Below, in pieces: positions 1 through 64,000 of a DNA stretch of 64,000 nucleotides. A program made the translations under genes and the position numbers. The DNA is from a bacterium (lineage in GTDB: Bacteria > Margulisbacteria > Marinamargulisbacteria > GCA-2716485 > JAYNIM01), in contig JAYNIM010000001.1 of the NCBI GenBank assembly GCA_038109055.1, positions 89,527 through 153,526 on the forward strand, read 5' to 3'. The notes beneath the pieces were generated by a model. That model was not told the DNA's origin. It worked only from the letters and a program-made list of their open reading frames with translations, and ran no database searches. How positions within the stretch are numbered: the stretch's first letter is position 1; the number at the start of each line of letters is the position of its first letter.

Positions 1-558
1 ATTTAGACTGCTCTCCCAACTAGGTCCCCAACTTTGTTCAAAGCTGCCATAGCCAATAGCCCATTTTTTTATTTTTCTGATTATATAGCTATTATCATAA
101 GCTAGTTCTTTTTTGTTGTTCCAATCTTTTTGTATGTTTAGACTTAAATTCGCATGGTATTTTTTATAGGATTTTGGGAGGTTAATTTTTAGTCGGTTAT
201 TTACCTGTGTTGCGTTTAAAAAATAAGTAAAGAAATCCTGTGATTTATGTTGTATTTCTATGTTTCCTAAATTATTGTGAGGCTGATGGACTATTTTTTT
301 TAGTTTGTTGACTGCTTTTTTTTGATCGAAGTTTAAGTCGTTTTGATTGATGTTTTGATAGGCATCTCTTAAAACCGTTAGGTCTATGGGATAGCTGTTG
401 ATGTCTATTTTTATAATGTTTTGGTCGTTTAAATAATGGAGAAGATAGCGCTCAGAATAGGTGTTTGGGGTCCAGAAAAAAGCGTGATTATTTGCTTGTA
501 TTAGAACTGTATTTATTAATATGGATAGAACTAAAAAAAAAAAATTATGTTGTTTCAT
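1..558 (-). CDS. hypothetical secreted protein, 3' end cut by the window edge
   Basis: Hand translation of the minus strand is open from ATG (558-556) to base 1. It is absent from the ORF track because it has no stop in the window. Sequence: MKQHNFFFLVLSILINTVLIQANNHAFFWTPNTYSERYLLHYLNDQ...GYGSFEQSWGPSWESSLN. The N-terminus is hydrophobic and signal-peptide-like. The start overlaps the upstream ABC gene end by 14 nt. Confidence 0.55.
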   Translation of the reverse strand, partial: MKQHNFFFLVLSILINTVLIQANNHAFFWTPNTYSERYLLHYLNDQNIIKIDINSYPIDLTVLRDAYQNINQNDLNFDQKKAVNKLKKIVHQPHNNLGNIEIQHKSQDFFTYFLNATQVNNRLKINLPKSYKKYHANLSLNIQKDWNNKKELAYDNSYIIRKIKKWAIGYGSFEQSWGPSWESSLN

Positions 559-2284
559 TCTGAAATAATTCGTTATAGCTGCCTGTTTTGGAGATTTTTC
601 CTTGATCAAGAATGATGATTTTGTCTGCATGTTTGAGATTTGTGTGTCTATGTGAAATAGCAATTAAGGTATATTTTTCTTTAATGTTGTGCAGAGCTTC
701 TTGAATTTTTAAATCACTTTCATTATCTAATTGGGAGGTTGCTTCGTCAAATATCAGGCATTGAGGTTTTTTGAGTATAGCTCTTGCAATTGCGATTCGT
801 TGTTTTTGTCCGCCAGATAAACCACTGCCATTTTCTCCGAGGGGGGTATCGAGTTTGTTAGGGAGGGTTTCTATGAATTCCCAAGCATTTGCTATTTTGC
901 AGGCTTCAATTAGCTCCTTGTTGCTGGCATTTTCTTTTCCGATACATAGATTGTTTTTTATTGTTTCTTTAAATAGAAAAGGATTTTGTGGGACATATCC
1001 AAAATATTGTCGCCAGTTTTGTAGTTTGATGTCCTGGATAGGAATATTTTGACAGGTGATGTTTTGATTTTTTATGTGGTAGAAGCGTAATAGTAGGTAT
1101 ATAAGGGTGCTCTTTCCTGAGCCACTTTCTCCGATTATTCCTGTAAATTGCTTGTTTTTTATTGTTAATGAAATATTATTTAATGCTTTTTTTGTAGTAC
1201 TGTCGTATTGAAAGTAAAGATTCTTTATTTTTATGTCACCTAAGGTTTGTAGATCTTTTTTCCCTGTTATAACGTTTGATTTTGTTTCTAATATATCTTT
1301 AATTCGAAGAATACATGGAATGGTTTCTTGTATGTGTAGCCATTCTGCAATGAAGAGCTTGAGTGGGGCAGCTAAAAAGCCTATCATGGTGAAAAATTGT
1401 AATAATTCTTCTTTTGTTAATGTTTGGTTTTTTATTTGACTATTGCCACTGTATAAAATAAATAAAATAAATGGAAATATAATAAGTTCTTGAATAGGGG
1501 TACTGCTTATTTTTATTTTTATTCGTTTAAGTTCGGTTATGATGTAATCTTGATTAATTTTTTTAAAATTATTTATCATTTTATTTTCATAATTAAAGCC
1601 TTTGATTACTTGGATACCAAGTAACATTTCTTGTAACGTATGAAGCATTTTTGAATACATGCTTCGGATCATAGAAGCTTTTTTCTTAATGTATTGGCTG
1701 AGTATATAAATGATGATTCCAACGATGAGACTGCCAGAGAAACAGATTAAGGTTAACTTATAATTTATAATGCATAAGCTTGTGATTAAGCTTATGATGA
1801 CGAATGCGTTTAATATAAATTGTCTTCCGATGGTTTCAATTAAATTATTAAATAATTGAATGTCATCCATGAGAACGGCTAAGATTTTTCCAGAGTTTTT
1901 TTTGTCAAAATAATGAAAGTCTAATTGTATAATATGTTTGAATAATGTGATTCTGTACTTATATATTAGTTTTGTTCGGAACCATTGTAATAAATATTGG
2001 TATCCGAAGAAGCTTATATTTTTAATGAGTAGTATGGCGATTAAAAATATGGCTAAATTTAATAGAGTAGAGGTATTTATATGTAAAAAATTGTTTATGG
2101 TTTCTTGAATGTGGTTAGGAGTTAGTGGGATTGTAGTATTGTTTGTGCTTTGATGAAGGAAAGATCCAAGATAAAGACCTAATAACGCCGTAGATAAGCT
2201 ATAAATGATCCCTAGTATAAATATTAATAGAATATAGCCTTTAAATGCACTTATTTGTTGGATAAGATTTTTTTTAAAGTTCAT
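545..2284 (-). CDS. msbA: ABC exporter with fused permease and ATPase, MsbA-like lipid A/lipid flippase
   Basis: N-terminal 6-TM-type domain. Walker A GESGSGKST, ABC signature LSGGQKQR, Walker B LIFDEATSQLD, H-loop ISHRH. It lies directly downstream of kdsB-kdsD-kdsA and overlaps kdsA by 11 nt. The ABC call is firm; the msbA assignment rests on context. Confidence 0.75.
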   Translation of the reverse strand: MNFKKNLIQQISAFKGYILLIFILGIIYSLSTALLGLYLGSFLHQSTNNTTIPLTPNHIQETINNFLHINTSTLLNLAIFLIAILLIKNISFFGYQYLLQWFRTKLIYKYRITLFKHIIQLDFHYFDKKNSGKILAVLMDDIQLFNNLIETIGRQFILNAFVIISLITSLCIINYKLTLICFSGSLIVGIIIYILSQYIKKKASMIRSMYSKMLHTLQEMLLGIQVIKGFNYENKMINNFKKINQDYIITELKRIKIKISSTPIQELIIFPFILFILYSGNSQIKNQTLTKEELLQFFTMIGFLAAPLKLFIAEWLHIQETIPCILRIKDILETKSNVITGKKDLQTLGDIKIKNLYFQYDSTTKKALNNISLTIKNKQFTGIIGESGSGKSTLIYLLLRFYHIKNQNITCQNIPIQDIKLQNWRQYFGYVPQNPFLFKETIKNNLCIGKENASNKELIEACKIANAWEFIETLPNKLDTPLGENGSGLSGGQKQRIAIARAILKKPQCLIFDEATSQLDNESDLKIQEALHNIKEKYTLIAISHRHTNLKHADKIIILDQGKISKTGSYNELFQNETT

Positions 2285-3110
2285 CTAAATTTTTACAATA
2301 GTTGTGTATCTTTGTGAGTGTTTTGATGGTTGTTTCGCATTTTTTTAATGTTAACATGGTTGCTGCATCACTTTTAGCTTTTGTTGGATTTGGGTGTATT
2401 TCAAGAAAAAAACCTGAAACACCTATGCTTGCAGCTGCTTTTGCTAGATCTAATGACAGGTGAGGGTCTCCTAAACTGTGGCCTTGACCTTTTCCAGGTT
2501 TTTGGACGGCATGTGTGATGTCGTAAACAACCGGACAAAATGATTTCATGGTAGAAAGGGCTCTAAAGTCTACAACTAGATTTTGATAGCCGAAACATGT
2601 ACCACGTTCTGTGAGAAATATATTTTTATTGTTTGTGGAGTAAGCCTTTTCTAGTACATATTGCATGTCTTCTGCAGCCATAAATTGTCCTTTTTTGATG
2701 TTGACGGCTAAGTTACTTTGAGCAGCGGAGACGATTAAATCTGTTTGTCTGCATAGAAAGGCAGGTATTTGTATAATATCTATAATGTTTTTGATTTCGT
2801 TGACCTGCCATGTTTCGTGGATGTCAGTCATGATGGGAATTTGATACTTTTTTTTGATTTTTTCTAAGATTGATAATGCTTTTGAAAAACCAATACTTCT
2901 AAAGCTATTTATTGAGCTACGATTTGCTTTATCGAAGGATGCTTTAAACACGATATTTATTTGTTCTTCTTTTTGTAATTTAATTAAGAATTCTGCGATT
3001 TCGTCGCAAATACTCTCGGACTCAATTGCACATGGCCCACTGAAAAAAACCAGTTTATCTGTGCCTAAGGAAAGTTTTTTTGTTAAGGATATTTGTTTTA
3101 TTTGATTCAT
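2274..3110 (-). CDS. kdsA: 3-deoxy-8-phosphooctulonate (Kdo-8-P) synthase
   Basis: Full-length match to KdsA hallmarks: FFSGPCAIES, FKASFDKANRSS, MTDIHE, IPAFLCRQTDL, NIKKGQF, LTERG, YDITHAVQ. Confidence 0.9.
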   Translation of the reverse strand: MNQIKQISLTKKLSLGTDKLVFFSGPCAIESESICDEIAEFLIKLQKEEQINIVFKASFDKANRSSINSFRSIGFSKALSILEKIKKKYQIPIMTDIHETWQVNEIKNIIDIIQIPAFLCRQTDLIVSAAQSNLAVNIKKGQFMAAEDMQYVLEKAYSTNNKNIFLTERGTCFGYQNLVVDFRALSTMKSFCPVVYDITHAVQKPGKGQGHSLGDPHLSLDLAKAAASIGVSGFFLEIHPNPTKAKSDAATMLTLKKCETTIKTLTKIHNYCKNLDEL

Positions 3111-3114
3111 TTTC

Positions 3115-4086: not shown

Positions 4087-4091
4087 GCTAT

Positions 4092-4811: not shown

Positions 4812-4921
4812 AAATTTCAGTGTACTAATTTTATTGTTTATTTGTAAATTGATTTGGATAAAAAATATTGAGAATTAGATCTATGTTTTAATAGAGGGTA
4901 TTTTTTATTAAACATTTGATT

Positions 4922-8981: not shown

Positions 8982-8983
8982 GT

Positions 8984-9331
8984 TTATCTTTTAAATATAA
9001 GGGTTATATTGGGGTTATTTTTTTTAGAACTTATTTTTTCTATCTCATTCATGGATAGCCACTTTATAAGAAGCGATTTGTTTTTTTTGAGTTGATTTTT
9101 GTTTAATGTTATGACTATTCTTTTTTTTGTTTTATGTATTGATTCGGGGCTAATGATCTTTTTTAGATCTGACAGCATATTTTTTTTTATGATTGATTGG
9201 AGTTGTTGTTGATGGCTCGTATGTGTTTTTATTATGGTTTGTAATTTTTTTTTTGCTGTTTGCCAATCCTGAAAATGGCTTGCACATAGTAAGAATACGA
9301 TGGGGAGAGATATGTATTGATTAATTTTCAT
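8984..9331 (-). CDS. hypothetical small exported protein, possibly a lipoprotein (115 aa)
   Basis: N-terminus [20 protein letters not shown] (hydrophobic, with a Cys). Lies 2 nt from the secretin-like gene and is overlapped by 11 nt by the upstream gene. No recognisable domain. Confidence 0.5.
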   Translation of the reverse strand: MKINQYISLPIVFLLCASHFQDWQTAKKKLQTIIKTHTSHQQQLQSIIKKNMLSDLKKIISPESIHKTKKRIVITLNKNQLKKNKSLLIKWLSMNEIEKISSKKNNPNITLIFKR

Positions 9332-10079
9332 CTTTTGTAAGTTTAAATTGACTTTTTATTGTGATGGTTTGTTCTTTTTTTTTTGTTTCTAAATTTATTA
9401 ATGAGATCTTTTCGTTTTGTAATAGTTGTTTTATGGAATTTTTAAACTTTTTTATTCTTTTTAGGGGTATTGTTGAGGTAATTTCGGCGTTATTTTTGTG
9501 GTGATTTAGAGTTTCAATGGGTGTTGTATATTCGCTTAGTAATGTGATGAAGGCCTTGTTTTTTTGTTTTTGTTTGTTTGTATAGGTTTTATATTTTTCT
9601 TGTATTTGTAGGGTGTTTATACTGTGATTACTGAGTGTATGTATGTGGAGATGGATTGTTTTATTTGAAATTGATAGTAATAAGAGGGTTATTATAGCGA
9701 TATAATTATAGGGAGAAGGAAGTGGATGAAGGCTTTTGTCTAGGACTTTTTTTAGGGTAGTTTTGTTTTGTTTGGTGAGTATTTTGATTGTGTGTTCGTT
9801 AAATATTTCTTTTAGTTTGGCTTGAATTTTTTGTGTGTTTTGGCTGTGTTTTAGCTTGTTGTTGATTAAGTTTTGATTGATATATATGAGTAGTATGTTA
9901 TTTGTGTTGATTTTTGAGCAAAGTTTATGTTGTTGTTTTGGGTTATTAATAAAACAAAAAAAGGATAGGTTTGTTTTTTTGTTATTTACCGTGTGATAAT
10001 CCTTATTGAAATGTATAGTTTGATGCATAGCTAAATATTTTATTTTGTATATTTTATTGTAACTTTTATTATTTATCAA
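9321..10079 (-). CDS. hypothetical single-pass membrane protein (252 aa); the position would suit a PilN/PilO-like secretin accessory
   Basis: Central TM segment [14 protein letters not shown] followed by K/Q-rich helical sequence. First gene of the three-gene secretin module. The start is uncertain (M1 at 10079 or M18 at 10028). Confidence 0.45.
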
Positions 10080-39145: not shown

Positions 39146-40723
39146 TTAATACGTTTTTTTCGCGATGGGAATTCGTCGGCCGCTACCAAATGCTTTTGAT
39201 GACACACGAAGTATGAGGGGGGCTTGTTGACGTTTATATTCAGATTGTTGTGTTTTTACGATGAGAAATGGATCGGAGGTGCGGTCTGTTTGTCTTGTTT
39301 CAACTAAATCTTCCAGTTGTTTGTCGATCTCGTTGTAGGAGGGGAGGGAATCTTGATCTTTTTGATTTGGACGTAGCTCTGCACTAGGTGCTTTGTTGAG
39401 GATGCGATTGGGGATGCAGTTGGGGTATTTTTTGTTTAGTTGTGTCGCTAATGCGTATACCTGTGTTTTGCTTAGGTCTCCAATGGGACTGAGTGCTCCA
39501 CATAAATCTCCGTATAATGTTGTGTAACCTAAGCATAGTTCGCTTTTGTTTCCGGTACTCACCACTAAGGCGTTGTTTTCATTAGCAAGCGCCATTAAAA
39601 GGGTGCCTCTGATTCGTGCTTGTATATTTTCTTGTGTTAGCGTTATTTTTGTTTGATTTATTGTTTCGTTGAGTGTTTCTTTAAATTGTTCGTATAGAGG
39701 AGTGATTGATAGAGAATGTAGGTTTTTTCCGACTAGTTTCTCTGCATCTTCTATACTTTCTTTAGAGGTATAAGGGGAGGGGAGCATACAGGGGATAATG
39801 GCCTCTTTTGTTAATGCTAAACAACATAGTACGTAGGTGAGTGCTGAATCAATCCCTCCAGATATGCCAATAACCGCCTTGGAAAAGCCTGTTTTTTTAA
39901 AATAATCTTGAATTCCTAAGGTTAAGGCAGCTTCTAGGTTGTCCATGGCGGAAAAATGTAAACAGGGTAGCTGTGTTGGTTTTGTTTTCAAGTTTATGGT
40001 TTTTATGGCAGATTGAAAGCCTGGAAGCAGAGTGTGGCATTCTTGATCTTGATTCATATAAAAGCTATGACCGTCAAAAATGATGGCATCGTTGGTACCG
40101 ACTTGATTGACACATACTAAGGGGAGTTTATATTTTTTTGTTATTCTTTTTGCTTTTTGTAGGCGTTTTTCTACTTTTTTTTCTTCGAATGGGGAGGCTG
40201 AAATATTGATCAGAATGCTAGCGTTTTTTTTGATTAGGTGGGGGATGGGGGAGAGGTGATCCTCCGTTGTCCATAAATCTTCGCATATTGTGATTCCTAA
40301 TGTTTCATTTTTGAATGAAAAGGTCTCATGTTGTGTGTTTTCAGAGAAATAACGTTTTTCGTCAAAAATGTCATTATTAGGTAGCAATGTTTTTCGTTTG
40401 TTAAAGAGTTGTTTGCCTTCAAATAGGAATAAAGCACTGTTGAAGAGTTGGCTGTTTGTTTCTTCTACGTATCCGATGAGTAAAGCAATATTTTTGCATG
40501 ATTGACTAAGTTGGAAGAGTTGGGTAATAAATTTTTTGTGTAAATTTAGGAAATGGTGATCAAATAAAAGATCTTGGGGAGGGTAACCTGTACTGAAGAG
40601 TTCGGGAAATATAATGAGGTCACTTTTGTCTTTTTTAGCGTGATTGATTGCTTTTTTGATCTCCTCTAGGTTGCCTTCGAAGTCAGCTATGGTAGGATTA
40701 CATTGTGCTAGTGTTATTTTCAT
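39146..40723 (-). CDS. nadE: glutamine-dependent NAD+ synthetase
   Basis: N-terminal CN-hydrolase domain (FPELFSTGYPPQDL, ICEDLW). C-terminal NAD synthase domain (ISGGIDSAL, STGNKSELCLGYTTLYGD). 2-nt gap to nadB. Confidence 0.9.
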   Translation of the reverse strand: MKITLAQCNPTIADFEGNLEEIKKAINHAKKDKSDLIIFPELFSTGYPPQDLLFDHHFLNLHKKFITQLFQLSQSCKNIALLIGYVEETNSQLFNSALFLFEGKQLFNKRKTLLPNNDIFDEKRYFSENTQHETFSFKNETLGITICEDLWTTEDHLSPIPHLIKKNASILINISASPFEEKKVEKRLQKAKRITKKYKLPLVCVNQVGTNDAIIFDGHSFYMNQDQECHTLLPGFQSAIKTINLKTKPTQLPCLHFSAMDNLEAALTLGIQDYFKKTGFSKAVIGISGGIDSALTYVLCCLALTKEAIIPCMLPSPYTSKESIEDAEKLVGKNLHSLSITPLYEQFKETLNETINQTKITLTQENIQARIRGTLLMALANENNALVVSTGNKSELCLGYTTLYGDLCGALSPIGDLSKTQVYALATQLNKKYPNCIPNRILNKAPSAELRPNQKDQDSLPSYNEIDKQLEDLVETRQTDRTSDPFLIVKTQQSEYKRQQAPLILRVSSKAFGSGRRIPIAKKTY

Positions 40724-46793: not shown

Positions 46794-47017
46794 TTGTCAC
46801 TCCTTTTTAGGTTATTGAGGATTTTTTTTTGTAATTTCTTAATAAATTTGTTCCCTATATAGGGTATGCCCTCATAAACATAAAATTAAACATCACTTAA
46901 TACAAAGGCGTTATCTATGATTGAACATTATTCGTGCGTATGTGGATATGTAAGTGTTTACATATTTTTTTGGGTATGTTTTAGTATCTTTGATAAATAG
47001 TTTTTGAGAGGTTGTTG

Positions 47018-48079
47018 ATGAAAAAATGCATTAATATCTTGTGGATTTTGACGGTTTCATGCTTGTGTTTAGTGGGTTGTTCAGGGCCTGCTACAACAGT
47101 AGATTCGGGGACTGAAGCCAAAGAGACGAAGGTAATTATGGGGGCTGGTGCAACTTTTCCCTACCCTCTTTATGCCAAGATGTTTGATGCGTATTATCAA
47201 CAAACCGGTTATCAGGTGAATTATCAATCGATTGGTTCTGGTGGAGGTGTTAGGCAGTTGTTAAAGAAAACCGTTGATTTTGGTGCCACCGATGCATTTA
47301 TTACAGATCAGAAAATGCGTGATTTTCCTGCTGAGATTGTACATATACCTACCTGTTTAGGTGCTGTTGCGGTGAGTTATCATGTTCCGGGTGTAAAGAG
47401 CCAATCACTTCGCATTTCAGCGGCCGTTTTAGCGGATATATTTTTGGGAAAGATTCGTTATTGGAATGATGCGCGTATTGTAAAAGATAATCCTGGGGTT
47501 TCTTTACCTAAACTTAAAATTACCCCTGTATATCGTTCGGATGGCAGTGGGACTACGGCAATTTTTACGGATTATTTGACGAAAGTGAGTGGTGAATGGA
47601 AAGCCAAGGTTGGTATGGGGAAATCTGTGAACTGGCCTATGGGTGTGGGTGCAAAAGGAAATGCAGGTGTTGCGGGTGTTTTAAAGCAAATGCCCGGGGG
47701 GATTGCCTATATTAATTTGGCCTATTGTATACAGAATTCACTGCCGCTTGCTGCGGTTGAAAATGGGCGTGGTGATTTTGTTGTTCCTACGATTGAAAGT
47801 ACGACTTTGGCGGCAAGCGCTAAGATACCTGCGGATACGCGTGTATCCATTACGAATTCTTCTGTTAAAAACTCCTACCCTATTTCGGGCTTTACCTGGT
47901 TAATCATTTATAAAGCTTTACCTGAATCTTCTAACTCTACACGTATTTCGGAAATAAAAGATTTATTTTCTTGGATGGTTTCTGATGCTCAATCTTATGT
48001 GGCGCCTTTGCATTATGCGCCATTGCCCTCTAATGTTCGGGTTCAGGCGCAAAAAATTATTGATAGTATTATTGATTAA
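47018..48079 (+). CDS. pstS: phosphate-binding lipoprotein PstS (plus-strand paralogue)
   Basis: Lipobox LVGCSG. GAGATFPYPLYAKMFDAYY...VNYQSIGSGGGVRQL, TPVYRSDGSGTTAIFTDYL, GGIAYINLAY. Start at ATG 47018 after GAGAGG. Confidence 0.88.
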   Translation: MKKCINILWILTVSCLCLVGCSGPATTVDSGTEAKETKVIMGAGATFPYPLYAKMFDAYYQQTGYQVNYQSIGSGGGVRQLLKKTVDFGATDAFITDQKMRDFPAEIVHIPTCLGAVAVSYHVPGVKSQSLRISAAVLADIFLGKIRYWNDARIVKDNPGVSLPKLKITPVYRSDGSGTTAIFTDYLTKVSGEWKAKVGMGKSVNWPMGVGAKGNAGVAGVLKQMPGGIAYINLAYCIQNSLPLAAVENGRGDFVVPTIESTTLAASAKIPADTRVSITNSSVKNSYPISGFTWLIIYKALPESSNSTRISEIKDLFSWMVSDAQSYVAPLHYAPLPSNVRVQAQKIIDSIID

Positions 48080-51731: not shown

Positions 51732-52268
51732 ATGTACGGTGATCAGGTTGAACGCTACTTAAGCCTTTTGAAAGAGTATAATGAGCATACCAATATTTAT
51801 TCGAAGAAGGCCTATGATAAATTGGATTTTCATGTCAAAGATAGCTGTGTTTTGGCAGGTTTAATTGGTAATAAGTCGTGTCGGGTGTTGGATATTGGTT
51901 CAGGTTCTGGATTTCCTTCTGTGATTATTGCTATTTGCAACCCTAAAAATAAGGTTCGGGCAGTCGAGTCTAAATCTCGTAAAACGCGTTTTTTAGAGCA
52001 GGTTAAAATAGACCTTTGCTTGGATAATTTTGAGGTGGTTCAGGCGAATATTGTGGAGTATGGCCGTTGTGATGTGCCAAAAGCAGATGTAATAACAGCT
52101 AAGGCGTTTGCTTCTTTGGAACGTGTAAAGCACGTGTCAAAGCCTCTCAGAAAGGCGCGACATTGTATTTGGATTCCGATTCATTATGATCAATTTGATG
52201 AGATTGAGGATACGAAAACCTGTCGTATCGAAAAAGACGGATTTTATTATTTGAAACGAGAGGGTTAG
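51732..52268 (+). CDS. rsmG: 16S rRNA (guanine527-N7)-methyltransferase
   Basis: SAM motif VLDIGSGSGFPSVIIAI, ESKSRKTRFL, ITAKAF. Size is typical of GidB/RsmG. Confidence 0.82.
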   Translation: MYGDQVERYLSLLKEYNEHTNIYSKKAYDKLDFHVKDSCVLAGLIGNKSCRVLDIGSGSGFPSVIIAICNPKNKVRAVESKSRKTRFLEQVKIDLCLDNFEVVQANIVEYGRCDVPKADVITAKAFASLERVKHVSKPLRKARHCIWIPIHYDQFDEIEDTKTCRIEKDGFYYLKREG

Positions 52269-52694
52269 ATGACGCTTAAGGTATATCGTTTGGCTGAAAG
52301 TGATGAATTGAATTTGCCTGTGTATAGTAGTCAGGTTTCTGCTGGGTTCCCCTCCCCTGCGGATGATTATTTAGAGGGACATTTAGATTTGAATGTGCAT
52401 TTGATTCAAAATAAAGAAGCGACGTTTATTGTTCGTGCGTCGGGTGATTCGATGCAGGGGGCGGGAATATTTGATCATGATTTGTTGTTGGTGGATCGTA
52501 GTTTAAGGCCTGTTTCTGGGAATGTGATTATTGCTTGTTTGCATGGTGAATTACTGGTGAAACGTTTACATATCCAAAATGGCTGTTATCAACTTTTGGC
52601 TGAAAATTCGGCTTATGCGCCTATTAAAATACATAAAAGTGATGATTTTTTAGTTTGGGGTGTGGTGATTCATGTCATTCATAAGCTGTGTTAG
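52269..52694 (+). CDS. umuD: UmuD-like S24 self-cleaving peptidase (translesion polymerase V accessory subunit)
   Basis: SAGFPSPADDYLEGHLDLN, RASGDSM (Ser nucleophile), LVKRL (Lys). The ATG immediately follows the rsmG stop (TAGATG). Confidence 0.85.
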   Translation: MTLKVYRLAESDELNLPVYSSQVSAGFPSPADDYLEGHLDLNVHLIQNKEATFIVRASGDSMQGAGIFDHDLLLVDRSLRPVSGNVIIACLHGELLVKRLHIQNGCYQLLAENSAYAPIKIHKSDDFLVWGVVIHVIHKLC

Positions 52695-52748
52695 ATGGTT
52701 TTGATGGAGACTATTCGTATGCTTTATAAAGCTTGTTAGGCATTTTTG

Positions 52749-54005
52749 ATGTTTGCTTTAGTTGATGCGAATAATTTTTATGTGTCTTGTGAACGGGTTT
52801 TTCAGCCTGATTTGGAGGGGAAACCTGTTCTGGTCTTATCTAATAATGATGGGTGTGTGATTGCACGTTCTGATGAAGTGAAAGCTTTGGGTTGTAAGAT
52901 GGGTGAGCCTTATTTTAAGGTGAAAGAAAGGTTGAGTGGGCATGGTGTACGGGTGTTTTCCTCTAATTACGCCTTGTATGGAGATATGTCAGCACGATTG
53001 ATGGCTCTGTTGATGGCTGGGTCTGCTGATGTAGAGGTGTATTCGGTGGACGAGGCGTTTTTGTTTTATCGAGATAGGCAGGATTGGAAGACGGAGGGGG
53101 CATCGTTAGTTGCGAAAATTCGACAGTATTTAGGGTTGCCGATTAGTATTGGTTTTGCTGCGACGAAGACCTTGGCTAAAGTAGCTAATCGCTTGGCGAA
53201 ACAGGATAAGGAGCGGTATCAGGGAGTGTGTGTTTTAGATGACACCAATGTGGATCGAGGATTATCGGCGTTGCCGTTAACAGACTTGTGGGGGGTTGGA
53301 CGTCGTCATGCGCGTTATTTGCATGCCCAGGGATTTTCGACGGCTTATGATGTGAAATATGCGCCCACTGCTATGATCAAAAAACAATTGAAATCGCCGG
53401 GGCTTCAGTTGCAACATGAATTGAAGGGTCATGTTTGTCATGATTTAGAGTATGAGCCTGCTTTGCGTAAAAGTATTTGTGCGTCTAAAAGCTTTGGACG
53501 TAAGTTGTCAGATGTGGATGTTGTGTTAGGAGCGCTGTTAAGTAATGTGGATCGTGCTCATGAAAAACTTCGTCAACAGGGGCTTTATGCAGGGTTTATG
53601 TTGGTGTTTGTTCATAGTTCACCTTTTAAGGGCGGGTATGTGTTTCATCGGGCACAATGTTCCTTGTCTGATCATGAACAATCATTGTTGTCTTTGAGTG
53701 GGATTGCAAAGAGGGCCTTGCTGTCTTGTTTTGATTCTAAAGTGAGGTATTGTAAATCAGGGGTTTTGCTTTGGGGCTTGTATTCCAAGGATTGTGTGCA
53801 GCCATCGTTGTTTGAAGATAAAGTAGGTAATAGTAAGCAGTCAGAAAAACTTGATCAGGCTTTAGAGGCGGTGCGAAAGCGCTATGGAAAGAACAGTGTG
53901 GGGCTGGCAAGCACAGGGTGTTATGCGGCTGAGTATCAGATGAATTCTGCGCAACGATCGCCACGTTATAGCACGCGTTGGGATGAATTGTTAGAGGTGA
54001 GTTAA
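52749..54005 (+). CDS. umuC: UmuC, Y-family DNA polymerase V catalytic subunit
   Basis: [57 protein letters not shown] is collinear with the E. coli UmuC N-terminus. SVDEAF. Start at ATG 52749 (the track TTG is one codon earlier). Confidence 0.9.
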
Positions 54006-55766
54006 GCTGGGTTTTTTGGGTGATTTTGCTGTATGTGTGTAGGCCGTTTTTCCCTTTGCTGTCTTTCTAAATATATGTTCTAAACTTTTTGCTATAAGCC
54101 ATATCGCTAAGCCAAGAATGAGCGAGTTAATCACAAGTAAGCCCCAGGATCCTTGCTTGAAAAACTGCCATTGATTTGCGAGTGATGCCCATAATGTGAT
54201 GGCTAATATAGCGACACAAGGAAGAAAGCTGACCCATACATAGCCTTTTTTTTCTTTTTTAAGAAACATTGTCACAAGGAGTAAGGCAAGGGCTGCTAAT
54301 AGTTGATTGACTGTACCAAATAATGGCCAGAGAGCTAAAGCCCCTTTTCCATTAAGCCCTGACGAAAAGGCAAGTATTGCAGCTGAACATACGGCGATGC
54401 CACAACTCTTTGTGGGTGTTATCCAATTTTTAAGAGGGCTATTTTGACAAAGTTCAGTGATCATATATCGTTGAACTCGTGTTGCAGAGTCTAAGGTAGT
54501 TCCTGCGAAGGAGGCGATTAATACCCCCATAATTGCGCTGGCAAAAGATGAGGATATCCCAATGCCAGACATGAAGTTAGCACAGCCAGTTACTACGGCG
54601 ACTAATTTTGATCCAAGCCCTGAGGAGGATTGCCATGATCCATAGTGGGTATTCCAAGCCTGGATTCCAATAAGTGTTTGACCTTCATTATCGGTATAGG
54701 CAAGACTTAAACCTGCACATACAGCAATAATGATTAATACGGCTAAAAACCCCTCTCCTATCATAGATCCATACCCCACTGCTTTAGCGTCTATTTCGTT
54801 ATTTATTTGTTTAGATGTGGTACCTGAACAGATTAAACTATGAAAACCTGAAATGGCGCCGCAAGCAATGGTGATACATAAAAAAGGCCATATTGAAGGT
54901 GCTCCTATGGGTGAAGGGTTAATGGCGGGAGCATGCATTATTAAGGGATTTCCTTGAAGGGCTATAGCGATCATACCAAGTAAAATTAATGCTAGAGCTA
55001 TGTATAGTTGCCAGGCATTTAAAAAATCTCTTGGTTGTAACAATGTATTTACGGGTATACGTGCAGCTACAAAGGCGTAGATTAGTAATATGAACGCCCA
55101 AATACCACTTGAAGGCATACTCCCCCAGTTAGGAAGTGTCAAAGGAAAGACTTGCCCCAGATATACGCAAACATACATGCCAGAAACACTTAGTATGGTT
55201 GCAAGGATTAAATTACCTTTTTTTTTAAACACCCAGTAGCCCATTCCGATAGCAATAGGGATTTCAAGCCAAATAGCGATAACTGAAGTTGGAAATTGGG
55301 TAAAAATGAGTCCCATAATTAAGGCAAAAATAGCAATCACAATCCAGAGTGCTAAACAAATAATCATAAAAAAAGCATATTTTAGCTGAGGACCCAGGTA
55401 TTGCTCGCTTATTTGAGCAATAGATTGGCCTTTGTTTCGAATGGAAAGCATTAGAACGGAAAAATCATGGACGGCTCCTAAAAAGATCGAGCCAAAGATG
55501 ACCCATAACAAGGCGGGTAACCAGCCCCAAATGACCCCAATAGCTGGGCCTACAATCGGACCAGTTCCCGCAATAGAGGTAAAATGATGCCCAAACATCA
55601 CACTTTTTTTTGAGGCGATGAATTCTTTACCATCTGCCAGAGTATGGGAAGGTACAGAGGCCAGTATGTTGCAGTTAAAGATCTTTTTTTCTAGAAATCT
55701 TCCATAAAATTTGTAACCTGAACCCAGTAGAATTCCGCTGATAATTAAAATGAGTAAAGCAGACAT
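53991..55766 (-). CDS. cstA: carbon starvation protein CstA family transporter (peptide/pyruvate)
   Basis: [20 protein letters not shown], polytopic, 591 aa. Its 3' end overlaps umuC by 15 nt (convergent). Confidence 0.9.
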
Positions 55767-56245: not shown

Positions 56246-58093
56246 CTATTTTTTTGTTTTTTGTTGTTTCTTGCTATCTAAATAGACCAATAAAATCATA
56301 ATGTCTGCTGGGTTAATGCCTGCGATACGTTTGGCTTCGTAGATGGTTTTAGGTTGTTCACTTTTTAATTTTTCACGACTTTCGTTACGTAAGCCTAAAA
56401 TGCTGTCATAATTGATGGAGCTGGGGATTTCTTTTTTTTCTTGTTTGTTTATTTTTTCGATATCTTGGGCTTGTTTTTTAATGTAGCCCTCGTATTTGGC
56501 CATGACAAGCGCTTGATGTTGTCGTTCTTTTTCTGATTCGGTACATGTATCAGGCAAGTCAAGATGTTTGAGGGTGAAATCAGGGCGTTTGACCAAGTGT
56601 GCAAGACGGCATTGATGATCTAAATTGAATGTTGAGAGATGTTGGGGGGTACAGGGTGTTTTTTGCCATGATTTAAGAATCTGATGTATTCGTGTTTCAT
56701 TGTTTTGAATTAGCGTGATTTGTGTCTTTGTTAAAAGATCATAGTCATGTGCTTTTTTACTTAAGCGATACCAGGGATTATCTTGGCGTAATAATAAACG
56801 GTACTCTGAACGGGACGAAAGCATGCGATAGGGTTCGTAAATGGGCTTGGTTATCAAATCATCAATCAATGTACCAATATAGGAATCTTGACGAGTTAAA
56901 ATAAAAGGCTTTCGTTTTTGGCAGTTAGCGGCAGCGTTAATTCCTGCTATAACCCCCTGCCCTGCGGCTTCTTCATAGCCTGAGGTGCCATTGATTTGAC
57001 CTGCTGAAAAGAGGTTTTTAATCTGTTTACATTCTAAGGTGGCCTTGAGTTGATTGGGATAAATAAAATCATATTCAACTGCATAGCCATAGCGAATGAC
57101 TTTTACGTCTTCTAGGCCTACCATGCTTTTTAAAAGGGCTAATTGAATATCGGCTGGAAGTGACGTATTTAGTCCTTGTGGATAAATTTCATTTGTATGT
57201 AGACTTTCGGGTTCGATGAAAATATGGTGTTGATCTTTGTCTTTAAAGCGAACAATTTTATCTTCAATAGAGGGACAATAACGTGGGCCTACCCCTTTGA
57301 TTACTTTCTGGTATAAAGGAGATCGATCTAGGTTGTTTAAAATTAGATTATGGGAGTCTTTGTTGGTATAGCTTAGATAGCATGGGACTTGGTTTTGGTA
57401 GCGGGTGTTATAGGTGGTTTCAAAAGAAAAATGTAGCCATTGATCATCGCCGGGTTCGATACGTAGTTTCTTGTAGTTAATACTATCTTTGTCTAAACGT
57501 GGTGGGGTGCCGGTTTTAAGTCGGCCGAGTTTGAGGTGTTTTTTGAGGCTATCAGATAGGGAGCTTGCGGGGGGTTCTCCGACTCTTCCCCCTTTTTTTT
57601 GTTCGTTTCCGGTATGCATCAATCCTTTTAAAAAGGTGCCAGAGGTGATGATTACGGCTTTGGCTTTGTAGGTTTTCTGACTAGCTTTGACGCCTTGAAT
57701 GTGATTGTTTTCAATGAGTAATTCATCCACGCTGGCCTCTATAACTGTGATGTTGATGTTGTTTTGAATGATGCGTTGCATGTAGCGTTGATACTCGATT
57801 TTGTCGTTTTGAGATCGTAGACACTGTACGGCTGGTCCTCGTGATCGGTTCAAGACTTTCATTTGCAGCATGGTGGCATCTGCAGCTTTGCCCATTTCTC
57901 CCCCTAATGCATCAATTTCACCTACGATTTGACCTTTTGCAGGGCCTCCTATAGACGGATTACAGGGCATGAGACCAATATTTTCTTTATTAATAGTAAA
58001 CATGATGACCTTGCAGCCCATTCGGCTAGCAGCAAGGGCCGCTTCTATGCCGGCGTGGCCGGTGCCAATGACAATGATGTCTGTTTTATTCAT
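56246..58093 (-). CDS. mnmG: tRNA uridine-5-carboxymethylaminomethyl modification enzyme MnmG (GidA)
   Basis: DIIVIGTGHAGIEAALAASRMG, MPCNPSIGGPAKGQIVGEIDALGG, GPRYCPSIEDK, AGQINGTSGYEEAAGQG. 615 aa. Confidence 0.96.
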   Translation of the reverse strand: MNKTDIIVIGTGHAGIEAALAASRMGCKVIMFTINKENIGLMPCNPSIGGPAKGQIVGEIDALGGEMGKAADATMLQMKVLNRSRGPAVQCLRSQNDKIEYQRYMQRIIQNNINITVIEASVDELLIENNHIQGVKASQKTYKAKAVIITSGTFLKGLMHTGNEQKKGGRVGEPPASSLSDSLKKHLKLGRLKTGTPPRLDKDSINYKKLRIEPGDDQWLHFSFETTYNTRYQNQVPCYLSYTNKDSHNLILNNLDRSPLYQKVIKGVGPRYCPSIEDKIVRFKDKDQHHIFIEPESLHTNEIYPQGLNTSLPADIQLALLKSMVGLEDVKVIRYGYAVEYDFIYPNQLKATLECKQIKNLFSAGQINGTSGYEEAAGQGVIAGINAAANCQKRKPFILTRQDSYIGTLIDDLITKPIYEPYRMLSSRSEYRLLLRQDNPWYRLSKKAHDYDLLTKTQITLIQNNETRIHQILKSWQKTPCTPQHLSTFNLDHQCRLAHLVKRPDFTLKHLDLPDTCTESEKERQHQALVMAKYEGYIKKQAQDIEKINKQEKKEIPSSINYDSILGLRNESREKLKSEQPKTIYEAKRIAGINPADIMILLVYLDSKKQQKTKK

Positions 58094-58196: not shown

Positions 58197-59942
58197 TTAA
58201 AACCTAAACTTAAATTCTCTGTATTTGCCTTTCTTTATTTTTGAGTAGCGTTTTCTTTTTTTCTTTTTTTTCTTTTTATCTTTATCTTTATTATCTTCTT
58301 CGTGTTCTATAGGCTTTATTTTGCTGTTATTGAGTTGCATAAAAACGTCGATGACTTTGTAGGTGATGCGCCATATGTCGAGGATATTGCTTACGGTTCG
58401 GGCGGCACTGCCGCTGCTGAGTATGCTTTGTGAAGGAATGGCGTAGTATAGCCCGATACTTATATGATAGTTGTTAAAATTGATACTAGATTTTTCTTTT
58501 GTTTCTAAAAGTTCAAACAAGGCCTTCGAGGTTAATTGTTTGGAAAATTGGGAGTAAATGTACCAGTTTTCATTGATAGCTTTGCGGTAATTGAGGCCGA
58601 ATGTGAGTAAAAAAGCGCTGTTTTTCTCGAGCCAGCCAAACTGCCAGTTTTGTGTACGTAGCTGTTGACCATAGGCGCGTTCTTGGATGCCTAGGCCTCC
58701 TAAGAGGCCGATGCTGTGCCTCTTGAACCAATAACGTTTTTCTAGCATTAAGGTCCAGTGGGTGAGACGTTTGAGGTGGATGGTATAGTGTGGTGTTTGG
58801 GCGATGTTGATATTGGAGAGGGAAAGATCCGCGTGTATGGATAAGAACCAGTTGGGTTTGTTGAGTATTTTTGCTAAAGGGAATGTGATGCTACTTGAAA
58901 AGCTAGAGATATTTTTGCCTTCTATATTGAGTATTTGGCCATAACTTGCTAAAAAGTCGAGGCCTAAACGTGGATAGCTTTCTGCCCAGCTACCTACAGT
59001 TTGCCAGTCGCCCCATAGTTGTTTGGCTTGGTTGGGGGCTGTTGGTGTCGATTTTACCTTTGTGATTTGGATGAGACCTTGTTTTTGGATTTTTATTCCT
59101 GTGTTGTTTTGTTCGTAGCCTTTGAGTAAAAATTCGTCGCCAATCCTGATTGTTTGTAAGGGAGATGGGGCGAGTTCATAATAATCATTTAAGGCATAGG
59201 TGATGGTTTGACGCTGTTTGAGTTCGGGGATTGTTTTACTTTTGTTTTGGGCTGCGGCAGCGAATTCCTCGTAGATATCTAAGTGTATCCAGCGTGATGC
59301 ATCATGGACGTTGATGGGGATTTTTTTTAAAAAATGTAGGGTGATGCTATTGTCGGGCTGTGTGAGGATTTGAAACCATAATACTCCGCCAGAGAGGCTT
59401 GTTTTTAGGGGTTTTATGTTGTTTTTTATAGGTATTTGTGTGATTTTTGTGATGAAAGGTAGATACATAAAACTGCTATTTTGTAACAACACTAAATCTT
59501 CTTTTGTGAGGGCTTTACTTTTGCCCTTTGTTTCGGCGAAGTTTGTTTTTGAGGTATTTTTTGTAAGGATATCTTTGTTTTTTTGAAGATTTTCTTTGTT
59601 TGTTATAAGTTGCTGAAAGCTGTTTTGGTAATGTGTTTGGATGAGTGTTTGGATATTTGGTGTATTTATTGCTTGAAGAGTATTTAACTTTTTTTGAAAG
59701 GGCTTCGTGATATTTTGGCTGACTGTTTTTGTTTGATAATTGTAGAGGGTTAATTTTTTATTTAGCTTTTGAGTTAATTTTTTCTGGTCATAGGCTGTAT
59801 GAGATTGTGTATGCGTATTGATGATGACCGTGCGGGTATCGATAAGATATTTGGGGATGTTGAAGGGGTTTAGTGAGGCTGGGAGTGAAGGTTTTTCCAA
59901 TCCTAATACGAGTAGTAATGTTAGAGCATATTTTTTTTTCAT
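58197..59942 (-). CDS. hypothetical exported protein, possibly an outer-membrane beta-barrel, with a poly-Lys insert before a C-terminal F-x-F
   Basis: Signal-like N-terminus. The C-terminal half has an alternating aromatic/polar pattern. Ends ...DKDKKKKKKKRKRYSKIKKGKYREFKFRF. No family recognised. Confidence 0.45.
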   Translation of the reverse strand: MKKKYALTLLLVLGLEKPSLPASLNPFNIPKYLIDTRTVIINTHTQSHTAYDQKKLTQKLNKKLTLYNYQTKTVSQNITKPFQKKLNTLQAINTPNIQTLIQTHYQNSFQQLITNKENLQKNKDILTKNTSKTNFAETKGKSKALTKEDLVLLQNSSFMYLPFITKITQIPIKNNIKPLKTSLSGGVLWFQILTQPDNSITLHFLKKIPINVHDASRWIHLDIYEEFAAAAQNKSKTIPELKQRQTITYALNDYYELAPSPLQTIRIGDEFLLKGYEQNNTGIKIQKQGLIQITKVKSTPTAPNQAKQLWGDWQTVGSWAESYPRLGLDFLASYGQILNIEGKNISSFSSSITFPLAKILNKPNWFLSIHADLSLSNINIAQTPHYTIHLKRLTHWTLMLEKRYWFKRHSIGLLGGLGIQERAYGQQLRTQNWQFGWLEKNSAFLLTFGLNYRKAINENWYIYSQFSKQLTSKALFELLETKEKSSINFNNYHISIGLYYAIPSQSILSSGSAARTVSNILDIWRITYKVIDVFMQLNNSKIKPIEHEEDNKDKDKKKKKKKRKRYSKIKKGKYREFKFRF

Positions 59943-63058: not shown

Positions 63059-63436
63059 TCATTTATCTGACATCTTATGTTTTTTTTTTAAATAGTCGAT
63101 TAAGCGTAGATTTTTAATAAATAGACGTGTTTTTTGGGAGGTCCTAACGGGGTTTGTGGTGATGAGATGGATGTCTTTGGAATTTGAGACCTGTGTTTTT
63201 ATAGAGTAGCTGTTGTACCTTTTTCCTTCTTTAATTTTAACGATTTGCAGGTCTTTTAGGTAGTGGGTATAGTTGTTTTTGATTACTAAGGTGTTTGAAT
63301 TTATGATGTCTACTGGGATACTGAGTACGATACGTTTATTCAGTAAATAGCTTAGGGTAGCAAATAAGAGACATAAATGTATTATTAGGCTTAGTTTGAT
63401 CAAGTTGTGTTTTTTCTTTTCTTTTTTGTTGGTCAT
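63059..63436 (-). CDS. hypothetical single-pass membrane protein (about 125 aa)
   Basis: TM LIKLSLIIHLCLLFATLSYLL. I prefer the internal ATG at 63436 because it forms an ATGA start/stop overlap with the upstream ABC gene (63433-63436). No domain recognised. Confidence 0.45.
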   Translation of the reverse strand: MTNKKEKKKHNLIKLSLIIHLCLLFATLSYLLNKRIVLSIPVDIINSNTLVIKNNYTHYLKDLQIVKIKEGKRYNSYSIKTQVSNSKDIHLITTNPVRTSQKTRLFIKNLRLIDYLKKKHKMSDK

Positions 63437-64000
63437 GTTTTTTGGGGTTGTTTTGATAGTAGAGTTTGGCAACAGTCGAAGGGGCTATTGTTGTGATTAT
63501 CTGTTTGGAGTGTATAGCTTAATTTTAAGTTCGTATATTGTTTTTTGAACAGGTTTTTTTCTATAGTATGGCAGGCATGATCAAGGTCTTGGCGTGCTTT
63601 TTGTGTGGATGTGTCAATAAAAAGTATCCACCATTGTTCTTGATTCTTATGGCAAAGGATGTGTTTGTTTTCTAAGATCAGGTCTAAAGTTGTACTTAGT
63701 TCGTAATTGAGGTTCTCTTCAATGTTAGTTACATTATGCGTGAGTAAGGCTAGCTCTAAGTTATGCTTGTTTAAGCGAAGGTCATTGTAACGGGTTAGGA
63801 AGTGTTGAAAGGAGCCAAATTGTTGTTCGTAGAGTTTGTGAAAAGGTCCGCGGCGCTGAAGTAATTCTTCGAGACTCCCTTCTTCAACGACGGAACCTTG
63901 ACTTCCGATGACGACTATTTTATCAAGTCCTTGGAGACTAGATAAACGATGTGTCATGATGATCATTGTTTTCTCTTTTTTTAATTCTTGAATAATACGA
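63433..64000 (-). CDS. ABC transporter ATP-binding protein, 5' end outside the window, with a C-terminal extension of about 130 aa and unknown function
   Basis: The frame stays open to base 64000 (hand check: ...RIIQELKKEKTMIIMTHRLSSLQGLDKIVVIGSQGSVVEEGSLEELLQRRGPFHKLYEQQ), which is the H-loop and C-terminal end of an ABC ATPase. About 130 further residues follow before the stop at 63433. Confidence 0.75.
   Translation of the reverse strand, partial: RIIQELKKEKTMIIMTHRLSSLQGLDKIVVIGSQGSVVEEGSLEELLQRRGPFHKLYEQQFGSFQHFLTRYNDLRLNKHNLELALLTHNVTNIEENLNYELSTTLDLILENKHILCHKNQEQWWILFIDTSTQKARQDLDHACHTIEKNLFKKQYTNLKLSYTLQTDNHNNSPFDCCQTLLSKQPQKT

Follow-up and report, generated by a model that had tools for sequence, protein, structure and literature searches.

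A strongly G+T-rich DNA strand and strand-dependent amino-acid usage in a 64-kb segment from a probable relative of Marinamargulisbacteria

In the 64,000-nt stretch of DNA analysed here (the window), which comes from a probable relative of Candidatus Marinamargulisbacteria, one strand has so large an excess of G and T that the proteins encoded on it differ in amino-acid composition from those encoded on the other; this strand is probably the leading strand. The skew is tied to the DNA strand and not to transcription. We consider it very probable that it reflects a strong replication-linked asymmetry of the transition type (C→T and/or A→G, on the side of the leading strand), which has come close to equilibrium, and that the segment is free of an origin and belongs entirely to one replichore.

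The window contains 23833 T, 15921 A, 14987 G and 9259 C (GC content 37.9%), which gives the + strand a GC skew of +0.236, a TA skew of +0.199 and a k, defined as (G-C+T-A)/N, of 0.213. For a sequence of this length we calculate a binomial SD of about 0.005-0.006 for either skew, so that each is more than 35 SD away from zero. An earlier note, based on the letters alone, had proposed that the + strand is enriched in G+T over the whole window and that the polarity never changes; both points hold, and its hand counts of four 60-nt samples were all exact on recount. G exceeds C in 32 of 32 two-kb bins (bin GC skew 0.064 to 0.409) and T exceeds A in 29 of them, the exceptions being located at 22-26 kb and 54-56 kb. 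Neither a polarity switch nor an origin or terminus was seen within the 64 kb or in the 3.15 kb that a Logan contig adds on the left side (k of 0.166); together, the window and this extension make up 67 kb of a contig whose length is 709 kb or more. Intergenic DNA of the window is skewed as well (GC +0.226, TA +0.195).

The gene set consists of 51 ORFs of at least 100 aa, of which those on the + strand cover 27.2 kb and those on the - strand 31.2 kb. Expressed in the sense of the + strand, the GC3 skew is positive in 51/51 ORFs, whichever strand encodes them, and the pooled values are very similar for + genes (+0.569) and - genes (+0.544); a change of sign with gene orientation was absent from all 51. 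This bears out the proposal of a bias tied to the DNA strand and not to transcription, and the four-fold degenerate sites, for which the earlier note had suggested the same computation, give positive values for both orientations (GC skew +0.39 for + genes and +0.66 for - genes; TA skew +0.33 and +0.27, respectively). The replication component is graded by codon position, being about 0.56 (GC) and 0.27 (TA) at position 3, 0.15 and 0.23 at position 1, and 0.03 and 0.08 at position 2, with 0.53 and 0.30 at four-fold sites. Such a gradation with codon freedom matches what is predicted for mutation pressure filtered by selection, and the cause of the skew is probably mutational. Four-fold sites of the + strand consist of 40% T, 29% G, 22% A and 9% C; in absolute terms the two excesses are almost the same (G-C = 0.198, T-A = 0.186), as expected if one strand undergoes C→T and/or A→G changes. 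The dinucleotide strand ratios are 0.96-1.21 times the product of the single-base ratios, and no marked sequence-context signature was seen among the dinucleotides of the window.

Table 1. Positions of the features discussed in the text (window coordinates).
Feature	Coordinates	Strand	Evidence and properties
G+T-rich strand of one replication arm	1..64000	+	Skews, 2-kb bins, GC3 skew sign; probable leading strand
kdsA, conserved enzyme keeping strand signature	2274..3110	-	NCBIfam KDO8P synthase E=1e-106; four-fold GC skew +0.64
Most extreme minus-strand ORF, 26% GC	9321..10079	-	GC skew +0.62 (+ strand), four-fold +0.91; axis 1 -0.68
Sel1-repeat gene	22901..25705	+	Pfam Sel1 E=1.2e-80
PstS paralogue, internal control	32068..33087	-	Pfam PBP_like_2; VGADFMRCW 23.0%, NKITHQP 49.0%
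nadE, conserved enzyme keeping strand signature	39146..40723	-	Pfam NAD_synthase + CN_hydrolase; four-fold GC skew +0.67
PstS paralogue, internal control	47012..48079	+	Pfam PBP_like_2; VGADFMRCW 42.5%
rsmG (gidB)	51732..52268	+	Pfam GidB E=5.8e-32
umuD + umuC, translesion polymerase V pair	52269..54005 (umuD 52269-52694, umuC 52746-54005)	+	Pfam Peptidase_S24; IMS/IMS_C/DUF4113
cstA, membrane-protein gene	53991..55766	-	Pfam CstA E=1.9e-131
mnmG (gidA)	56246..58093	- (C+A-rich, lagging-sense)	Pfam GIDA E=4.7e-157
Minus-strand ORF cited in the earlier note	58197..59942	-	Four-fold GC skew +0.84; axis 1 -0.29

The strand bias extends to the proteins. Pooled amino-acid usage differs between + and - genes (chi-square 958 on 19 df), and the first axis of a correspondence analysis of amino-acid usage, accounting for 42% of the inertia, separates the coding strands: 25/25 + genes score at least 0.08 and 23/26 - genes at most 0.02 (MWU p=1.2e-9). 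The two compositions that had been described by eye are thereby recovered. Proteins encoded on the + strand are enriched in V, M, R, D, F, A and G, and those on the - strand in N, I, T, K and H; valine makes up 7.7% of residues on + and 2.9% on -, and asparagine 2.9% and 7.3%. Most of the residues listed in the earlier note behave as described there, except that W, P and L show no significant strand difference among the 51 ORFs, Q is marginal, and M had been missed. The shifts in - genes match coding-sense G→A and T→C changes, V, A, D, M, R and G being down and I, T, N, K and H up. The two PstS paralogues, which are 31.5% identical, indeed serve as an internal control: both peptides quoted previously are present, the + copy is much richer in residues with G/T codons (VGADFMRCW; Table 1), and the aligned differing sites have the G/T-type residue in the + copy at 55 positions and the reverse at 12.

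Per-gene four-fold skews are uniformly high, also in the two minus-strand ORFs that had been singled out, for which no family match (9321..10079, NCBIfam search) and no Pfam match (58197..59942) were obtained. The signature is weak in a few genes, namely the Sel1-repeat gene, cstA and the gene at 44748-46793. The Sel1-repeat gene, which contains 108/324-bp tandem repeats at 23135-24086, is the only one without a strand signature (four-fold GC skew +0.07, TA -0.05). In cstA the skew is weakened (overall GC +0.04, four-fold GC +0.42, four-fold TA +0.03) and the amino-acid usage is plus-like (axis 1 = +0.10).

The G+T-rich strand carries 25/51 genes and 47% of the coding bases. The roughly even split noticed earlier, estimated then at about 28 kb (+) and 33 kb (-), is therefore real; it had also been regarded as odd for a strong replication skew, and this part needs qualifying, because an ordinary 60% leading-strand gene bias is compatible with 51 genes (binomial p=0.12) and a strong skew does not need a gene bias. 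In a survey of 185 chromosomes, a CDS skew near zero leaves the skews to arise from the replication component alone (PMC2031905).

That mnmG and rsmG, often close to the origin, are located in the window without a skew inversion had likewise been found puzzling. The observation is correct (the four-fold GC skew of mnmG is +0.77 in + strand sense). The two genes do not form an operon here, since they are in opposite orientation and 4 kb apart, with umuDC and cstA in between, and tblastn with DnaA and DnaN of a relative (E<=1e-20) gave no dnaA or dnaN match in the window. The sole ParA-like match is a protein of the Mrp/NUBPL type, and an origin-proximal cluster of dnaA-dnaN, mnmG-rsmG and parAB was not found in the window. 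The puzzle thus dissolves, as relatives that keep dnaN-dnaA beside mnmG-rsmG do reverse their skew there, and mnmG is not adjacent to an origin in the window.

The mnmG product is 100% identical to NCBI MEK9656871.1 (709,387-bp contig). Its closest named relatives are species representatives of Marinamargulisbacteria/UBP8 (55-62% identical), identity to Gastranaerophilales and Clostridia being 50% or less, and a neighbour-joining tree of this single marker places the window inside the Marinamargulisbacteria/UBP8 group; rRNA and tRNA genes were not found in the window. In five Margulis-type relatives (L027, L031, L023, L024, L044), and weakly in L017, the skew changes sign from - to + at dnaN-dnaA, so that in this clade it is anchored at the replication origin and the G+T-rich strand is the leading one. 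The G+T skew is a clade-wide trait: 28 Margulis-type loci have a median |k| of 0.06, against 0.0275 for 46 loci not of this type (MWU p=1.5e-6). The relative L035 matches the window in strength (sigmaG_R 0.247, sigmaA_R -0.190, same Val/Asn split), and six more loci reach 0.09-0.18. The record titles of the skewed relatives name marine, lake and groundwater samples. In the relative L002, whose MnmG is 77% identical, the strand status of the syntenic block mnmG-DUF3817-cstA...TPP is reversed. At the four-fold sites of mnmG that the two share, the window mostly has C/A where L002 has T, and the TPP enzyme has G/T-type residues in the window and A/C-type residues in L002 at 61 sites and the reverse at 9, a comparison confounded by the lower GC content of L002 (30%); there is no net residue asymmetry in MnmG (20:18) or CstA (14:24). 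Composition in this block appears to follow the strand and not the gene.

Based on these data, we envisage the following scenario. The window would be a normal part of the chromosome of an uncultivated relative of Marinamargulisbacteria, situated wholly within one replichore with its + strand leading. The strand that stays single-stranded for longer would acquire an excess of C→T and/or A→G, which would drive neutral sites close to a strand-specific equilibrium, and the same pressure would leak into codon positions 1 and 2, so that GNN and T-rich codons (V, A, G, D, F, M, R) would accumulate in leading-strand genes, and ANN codons and those containing C (N, K, I, T, H) in lagging-strand genes. 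If only transitions are considered, the equilibrium on the + strand corresponds to a T/C of 4.4 and an A/G of 0.75, an approximately six-fold strand difference. The dominating transition would be either C→T or A→G, and equilibrium composition alone fits an excess of the one or the other alike; it also fits equally a higher mutational asymmetry and genes that have stayed on one strand for an unusually long time.

The latter possibility, in which a mutational asymmetry of ordinary strength leads to an equilibrium never attained by frequently rearranged genomes, because gene order and orientation have been exceptionally stable in the long term, is unlikely in our opinion. It would account for the uniformly high per-gene four-fold skews, expected near equilibrium, and it has a precedent in Wolbachia, where gene-order stability was proposed as the reason for the strongest skew among the genomes (PMC3514676). 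However, the L002 block of opposite leading/lagging status implies that strand-changing rearrangements occur in the lineage and that composition has re-equilibrated since. The window itself has two rearrangement markers, the separation of mnmG/rsmG from dnaA and the insertion of umuDC, which is missing at the syntenic position in L002. Moreover, the equilibrium values are themselves a measure of rate asymmetry, T/C and A/G being six-fold apart. That the sequence is an artefact or foreign DNA (a chimeric or strand-biased assembly, a large plasmid, a phage or a one-way rolling-circle element) is very unlikely, and we give it next to no weight. Its source is a MAG, and the same sequence was found in no second, independent sample; against this stand two Logan contigs (run SRR26337569) that align to 11.5 kb and 2.6 kb of the window without a single mismatch, intact ORFs at a coding density of about 91%, a housekeeping gene content (glyQS, mnmG, rsmG, kdsABD, msbA, nadBE, pstSCAB-phoU, mlaEFD) and the presence of the trait in separately assembled relatives from many projects.

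Transcription-coupled asymmetry, that is, biased deamination or repair on the non-transcribed strand, is highly improbable as the origin of the skew. A small coding-sense term does exist, as seen from the different four-fold GC skews of + and - genes (C>G by about 0.14) and from transcription terms of 0.023 (sigmaG_T) and 0.051 (sigmaA_T), but these are 4-10 times below the strand terms (sigmaG_R 0.239, sigmaA_R -0.194). As the main cause it is ruled out by the sign, which is constant in 51/51 ORFs on either strand and in intergenic DNA. Selection instead of mutation, acting on strand-oriented oligomers (KOPS/Chi-like) or through strand-specific codon preference, could be invoked because four-fold sites (replication component 0.53, 0.30) are more skewed than intergenic DNA (0.23, 0.20), and codon selection may make some contribution. 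Yet the skew is spread almost multiplicatively over all dinucleotide contexts and affects every gene class, hypothetical ORFs included, and the amino acids of conserved enzymes are shifted along the base bias, which is a cost and not a benefit; we therefore attach very little probability to it.

Among known systems, Borrelia burgdorferi and Treponema pallidum come closest, having a G+T-rich leading strand and a codon and amino-acid usage whose first correspondence axis distinguishes the genes of the two replication strands (McInerney 1998; Lafay et al. 1999, as summarised in PMC2671203 and PMC2089121). The window resembles them in its G+T-rich strand, in the amino-acid split on axis 1 and in an effect that is strongest at third positions. 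Its k of 0.21 is about twice that of the Borrelia type (~0.1; PMC2089121), and its replication component (0.24, -0.19) is about 2.5 times the spirochaete mean of the 185-chromosome survey (sigmaG_R 0.096+/-0.047, sigmaA_R -0.075+/-0.047; PMC2031905 Table 1). In spirochaetes the transcription term (0.096) is as large as the replication term, whereas it is 0.023 in the window, which, unlike spirochaetes, has no leading-strand gene excess and belongs to an unrelated phylum. Strand-specific mutational bias, the main source of codon-usage variation in Chlamydia trachomatis/muridarum, Buchnera, Blochmannia, Bartonella, Tropheryma and Lawsonia (PMC2671203; k ~0.07 in Chlamydia, PMC2089121), would be shared with the window; these organisms are mostly obligately host-associated with reduced genomes, whereas the skewed relatives of the window are from marine, lake and groundwater samples. 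Firmicutes, which use PolC, have a leading strand with a purine excess (G>C, A>T), and their genes are mostly co-oriented with replication (PMC2031905); the window has G>C in common with them but T>A, and 25/51 genes on its G-rich strand. Margulisbacteria have been described as close phylogenetic neighbours of Cyanobacteria (PMC6349859), which have essentially no replication skew (sigmaG_R 0.001, sigmaA_R 0.000; PMC2031905 Table 1). Little or no gene-strand bias is common to Cyanobacteria and the window, but sigmaG_R is 0.24 in the latter. In vertebrate mitochondria, the G+T-rich strand is attributed to deamination of C and A while single-stranded in replication, and amino-acid composition depends on the encoding strand. 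These are organelles with another replication mode, so that the mechanism would be shared by analogy only, without membership of the same class. The kind of effect is already known, and the window is a new and unusually strong instance of it.

The earlier note had claimed a G+T enrichment of the + strand across the whole window, independent of gene orientation. The bias is confirmed and its interpretation is supported; all four 60-nt hand counts given for it were exact on recount. Over 64,000 nt, the + strand contains 23,833 T, 15,921 A, 14,987 G and 9,259 C (GC 37.9%), giving a GC skew of +0.236, a TA skew of +0.199 and a k, defined as (G-C+T-A)/N, of 0.213. Sampling alone would give either skew an SD of only about 0.005-0.006 (about 24,000 G+C and 40,000 A+T), so that chance is excluded as the source of these values. 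Every one of the 32 two-kb bins has G in excess of C (GC skew 0.064-0.409) and T exceeds A in 29 of them, while the intergenic DNA has a GC skew of +0.226 and a TA skew of +0.195. Logan contigs of run SRR26337569, which are identical to the window and extend it by 3.15 kb to the left and 0.38 kb to the right, still show a k of +0.166 in the left extension.

A bias of this kind could follow either the DNA strand or the direction of transcription. In the gene set, which covers the 51 non-nested ORFs that reach 100 aa or more, the + strand has 25 (27.2 kb) and the - strand 26 (31.2 kb), in line with the near-even split tallied before (about 28 and 33 kb). Read in the sense of the + strand, third-position GC skew is +0.569 in + genes and +0.544 in - genes and is positive in 51 of 51 ORFs, so that the sign does not flip with gene orientation, as a transcription-coupled effect would have it do. 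At four-fold sites, again in + strand sense, the GC skew is +0.39 in + genes and +0.66 in - genes, which splits into a strand term of 0.53 and a coding-sense term of -0.14, and the TA skew is +0.33 and +0.27, respectively. For whole CDSs, the replication terms (sigmaG_R 0.239, sigmaA_R -0.194) compare with transcription terms of 0.023 (sigmaG_T) and 0.051 (sigmaA_T), and the GC strand term is about 0.56, 0.15 and 0.03 at codon positions 3, 1 and 2. The bias is thus a property of the DNA strand, and it has the pattern of mutation pressure under a selective filter. The small coding-sense term at four-fold sites, which favours C over G and lies between -0.1 and -0.3 in many relatives, is more likely a codon preference, since its sign opposes that of deamination of the non-transcribed strand.

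At four-fold sites, the + strand frequencies are T 0.403, G 0.289, A 0.217 and C 0.091, and in absolute terms the excess of G over C (0.198) is close to that of T over A (0.186), which is the signature of transitions on one strand, C→T and/or A→G. A transitions-only equilibrium would put T/C at 4.4 for the leading strand and its counterpart at 0.75 for the lagging strand, about six-fold apart. In the standard account, C (and A) is deaminated on the template that is single-stranded for longest during replication (PMC2089121), and such deamination would fit the skew of the window; the composition fits dominance of C→T or of A→G, with or without loss of repair, equally well. A deaminase-like context signature (e.g. 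TC versus GA) was considered as the main cause and rejected, as the departure from multiplicativity is only about 20%: the strand ratios of dinucleotides are 0.96-1.21 times the values obtained by multiplying the single-base ratios, and thus no specific motif-directed process is indicated. The window is a new, unusually strong instance of replication-strand mutational asymmetry, not a new mechanism.

The asymmetry extends to the proteins. Pooled amino-acid usage differs between + and - genes (chi-square 958, 19 df), and in a correspondence analysis, which the earlier note had suggested as a check, axis 1 (42% of the inertia) splits the coding strands almost perfectly (MWU p=1.2e-9). Compared with - genes, + genes are richer in V (7.7% vs 2.9%), M (2.2% vs 1.2%), R (4.8% vs 3.0%) and D (6.1% vs 3.9%) and poorer in N (2.9% vs 7.3%), I (5.4% vs 9.9%), Thr (4.0% vs 7.2%) and K (5.7% vs 9.8%); valine is 2.6-fold and asparagine 2.5-fold apart, conserved enzymes included. 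Of the residues listed before as strand-specific, V, R, D, N, I, Thr and K are borne out, whereas W, P and L show no difference. The shifts are those expected if, in coding sense, G→A and T→C changes accumulate in - genes, which is equivalent to C→T and A→G on the + strand. The PstS paralogues, proposed as an internal control, share 31.5% identity and behave as such a control: residues of the G/T-codon type (VGADFMRCW) account for 42.5% of the protein encoded on + and 23.0% of the one encoded on -, and the asymmetry at differing aligned sites is 55 to 12. Three - genes do not follow the trend (see the table).

A comparison with L002, the locus of a relative with 77% identical MnmG, shows what happens when genes change strand. 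The block from mnmG through DUF3817 and cstA to a TPP enzyme is syntenic in the two. In L002 the mnmG strand is T-rich (four-fold TA skew +0.30 and +0.22), and the opposite leading/lagging status of the block implies a strand-switching rearrangement since the two diverged. Synonymous sites have re-equilibrated fully after the switch; at four-fold sites under identical residues in mnmG, the window mostly has C or A where L002 has T. In the TPP enzyme, which is leading in the window and lagging in L002, a G/T-type residue in the window faces an A/C-type residue in L002 at 61 sites and the reverse holds at 9, an asymmetry that is due in part to the lower GC of L002. For MnmG and CstA the residue asymmetry is roughly balanced, as expected if the GC and strand effects oppose each other. 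Thus, composition follows the strand that a gene currently occupies.

By MnmG, the nearest species representatives (55-62% identity) are MAGs of Candidatus Marinamargulisbacteria, Margulisiibacteriota and UBP8_UBA817, Gastranaerophilales and Clostridia reach at most 50%, and closer relatives (77%) are found in metagenomes on short contigs only. Four species-representative MAGs titled "Actinomycetota bacterium" or "Rickettsiales bacterium" (L035, which is PBBE01000045.1, L014, L007 and L009) are probably mislabelled, since their MnmG sequences group them with Marinamargulisbacteria. When the skew statistics were recomputed on 75 loci around mnmG, the median absolute k was 0.06 for the 28 Margulis-type loci versus 0.0275 for the 46 others (MWU p=1.5e-6). 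L035 matches the window (k -0.21, sigmaG_R 0.247, sigmaA_R -0.190; Val 8.4% vs 3.7% and Asn 2.6% vs 5.5% between strands), sigmaG_R is 0.09-0.18 in six further loci (L008, L009, L010, L018, L022 and L024), and a single-gene tree places the window among the more strongly skewed members. The trait is common, in varying degree, to the Marinamargulisbacteria-like clade, which shows little gene-strand bias: leading and lagging genes number 66 and 53 in uniformly skewed relatives and 25 and 26 in the window.

Several genomes of this clade (L027, L031, L023, L024, L044 and L017) carry recF-dnaN-dnaA head-to-head with mnmG-rsmG(-parB), and in these relatives the skew changes sign from - to + at dnaN-dnaA, as seen gene by gene in L027, likewise in L031, L023, L024 and L044, and weakly in L017. 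The skew is therefore tied to the replication origin in the clade, the G+T-rich strand is the leading strand, and the reversals locate candidate origins precisely in these MAGs and SAGs. The earlier observation that mnmG and rsmG lie in the window without a skew inversion is correct; it is not an anomaly, because the genes have been rearranged. They are separated and oppositely oriented, and neither dnaA nor dnaN was found in the window.

The window has the gene content of a housekeeping chromosome, with msbA, kdsA, kdsD, kdsB and polysaccharide export genes, glyQ and glyS, rarA/mgsA, a Mrp/NUBPL-type ATPase, two pstS genes, pstCAB-phoU, nadB and nadE, mlaEFD, rsmG, umuD, umuC, cstA and mnmG; searches across it for tRNA genes and Rfam families found none. 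NCBI holds identical copies of its MnmG (MEK9656871.1) and GlyS (MEK9656832.1), encoded on a 709,387-bp contig of a MAG. The M3 peptidase used as query had no relative among species-representative genome contigs, which means that the genome is not among the GTDB species representatives. The Sel1-repeat gene is the sole gene without the strand signature, which suggests recent acquisition or repeat homogenisation. Besides umuDC, the radical SAM protein and RarA/MgsA are the only DNA-damage-related genes, and no ung, mutY or nth homologues are among the annotated ORFs of the window. The place syntenic to umuDC in L002, where the GC skew is much weaker, lacks these genes; a link between umuDC and the mutation bias is pure speculation.

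Features of the window and of related loci
Feature	Locus	Position	Strand	Observation
LPS/surface-polysaccharide cluster	window	1-10079	-	msbA, kdsA, kdsD, kdsB, polysaccharide export protein, secretin-like protein, two unknown ORFs; GC 28-34% vs 35-46% elsewhere; highest TA skew
Spore-photoproduct-lyase-like radical SAM protein	window	16302-17405	-
Sel1-repeat gene	window	22901-25705	+	934 aa; four-fold GC skew +0.07, TA -0.05; A>T overall
Sel1 gene repeats	window	23135-24086		108-bp units within 324-bp super-units, 85% matches
RarA/MgsA recombination ATPase	window	25746-27035	-
M3 peptidase	window	28099-29934
Off-trend gene	window	33201-34262	-	axis 1 at least +0.02; no Pfam match
Off-trend gene	window	44748-46793	-	axis 1 at least +0.02; no Pfam match
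mnmG to TPP enzyme block	window	48164-58093
mnmG to TPP enzyme block	L002	197-6924
umuD-umuC (error-prone polymerase V)	window	52269-54005	+	directly follow rsmG
Place syntenic to umuDC	L002	2376-5093		DUF3995, cstA, crcB
Off-trend gene, cstA	window	53991-55766	-	axis 1 at least +0.02; polytopic membrane protein
recF-dnaN-dnaA/mnmG-rsmG	L027	5798-8491

A skew this large shows the reach of mutation pressure alone on protein composition. In this clade, one genome will look like two "genomes" to composition-based binning, to detectors based on codon usage or horizontal transfer, and to substitution models, and protein phylogenies can be biased where the strand of a gene differs between taxa, as for the mnmG block on opposite strands in two relatives. 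In MAGs of the clade, the skew should also locate the origin and terminus very sharply and serve as a sensitive test for misassembly.

Codon and amino-acid usage separated by strand is a kind of phenomenon known since 1998 (list in PMC2671203), and the strand-skew trait is not described in the examined literature that mentions Margulisbacteria. The k of the window compares with published values of about 0.1 for both B. burgdorferi and T. pallidum, of about 0.07 for Chlamydia and of less than 0.02 for E. coli (PMC2089121). The highest phylum mean of sigmaG_R is that of Spirochaetes, 0.096+/-0.047, with a mean sigmaA_R of -0.075+/-0.047, and the means of Cyanobacteria are 0.001 and 0.000 (PMC2031905 Table 1). 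By k, the window thus reaches about double the textbook extremes, and its sigma values are about 2.5 times the means for spirochaetes. These published values serve as the benchmark of magnitude in place of the right arm of the Borrelia plasmid lp54 (GC skew 0.12, TA skew 0.07), because a plasmid is a poor proxy for a chromosome. A literature search for extreme GC skew, Endolissoclinum included, gave no usable benchmark of magnitude. Very strong skew is also described for some reduced symbiont genomes, and "strongest known" is therefore unproven for the window. It is a tentative and rather doubtful proposal that a subclade of Marinamargulisbacteria-like bacteria, to which the genome of the window and L035 belong, has the strongest replication-linked mutational asymmetry yet seen in a bacterial chromosome, arising from a lineage-specific change in replication or repair; the figures behind it are a sigmaG_R of about 0.24 and a neutral-site GC skew component of about 0.5, without gene-strand bias. 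Candidate causes would be that the excision of uracil/hypoxanthine has been lost or weakened, or that the lagging-strand template stays single-stranded for unusually long. If the proposal is true, these genomes would be a natural experiment in deamination-driven divergence of the proteome. Phylogenetically, the lineage lies close to the Cyanobacteria, which, in contrast, are nearly free of skew, and the clade therefore provides a contrast for identifying the replication and repair genes that set the strength of the asymmetry.
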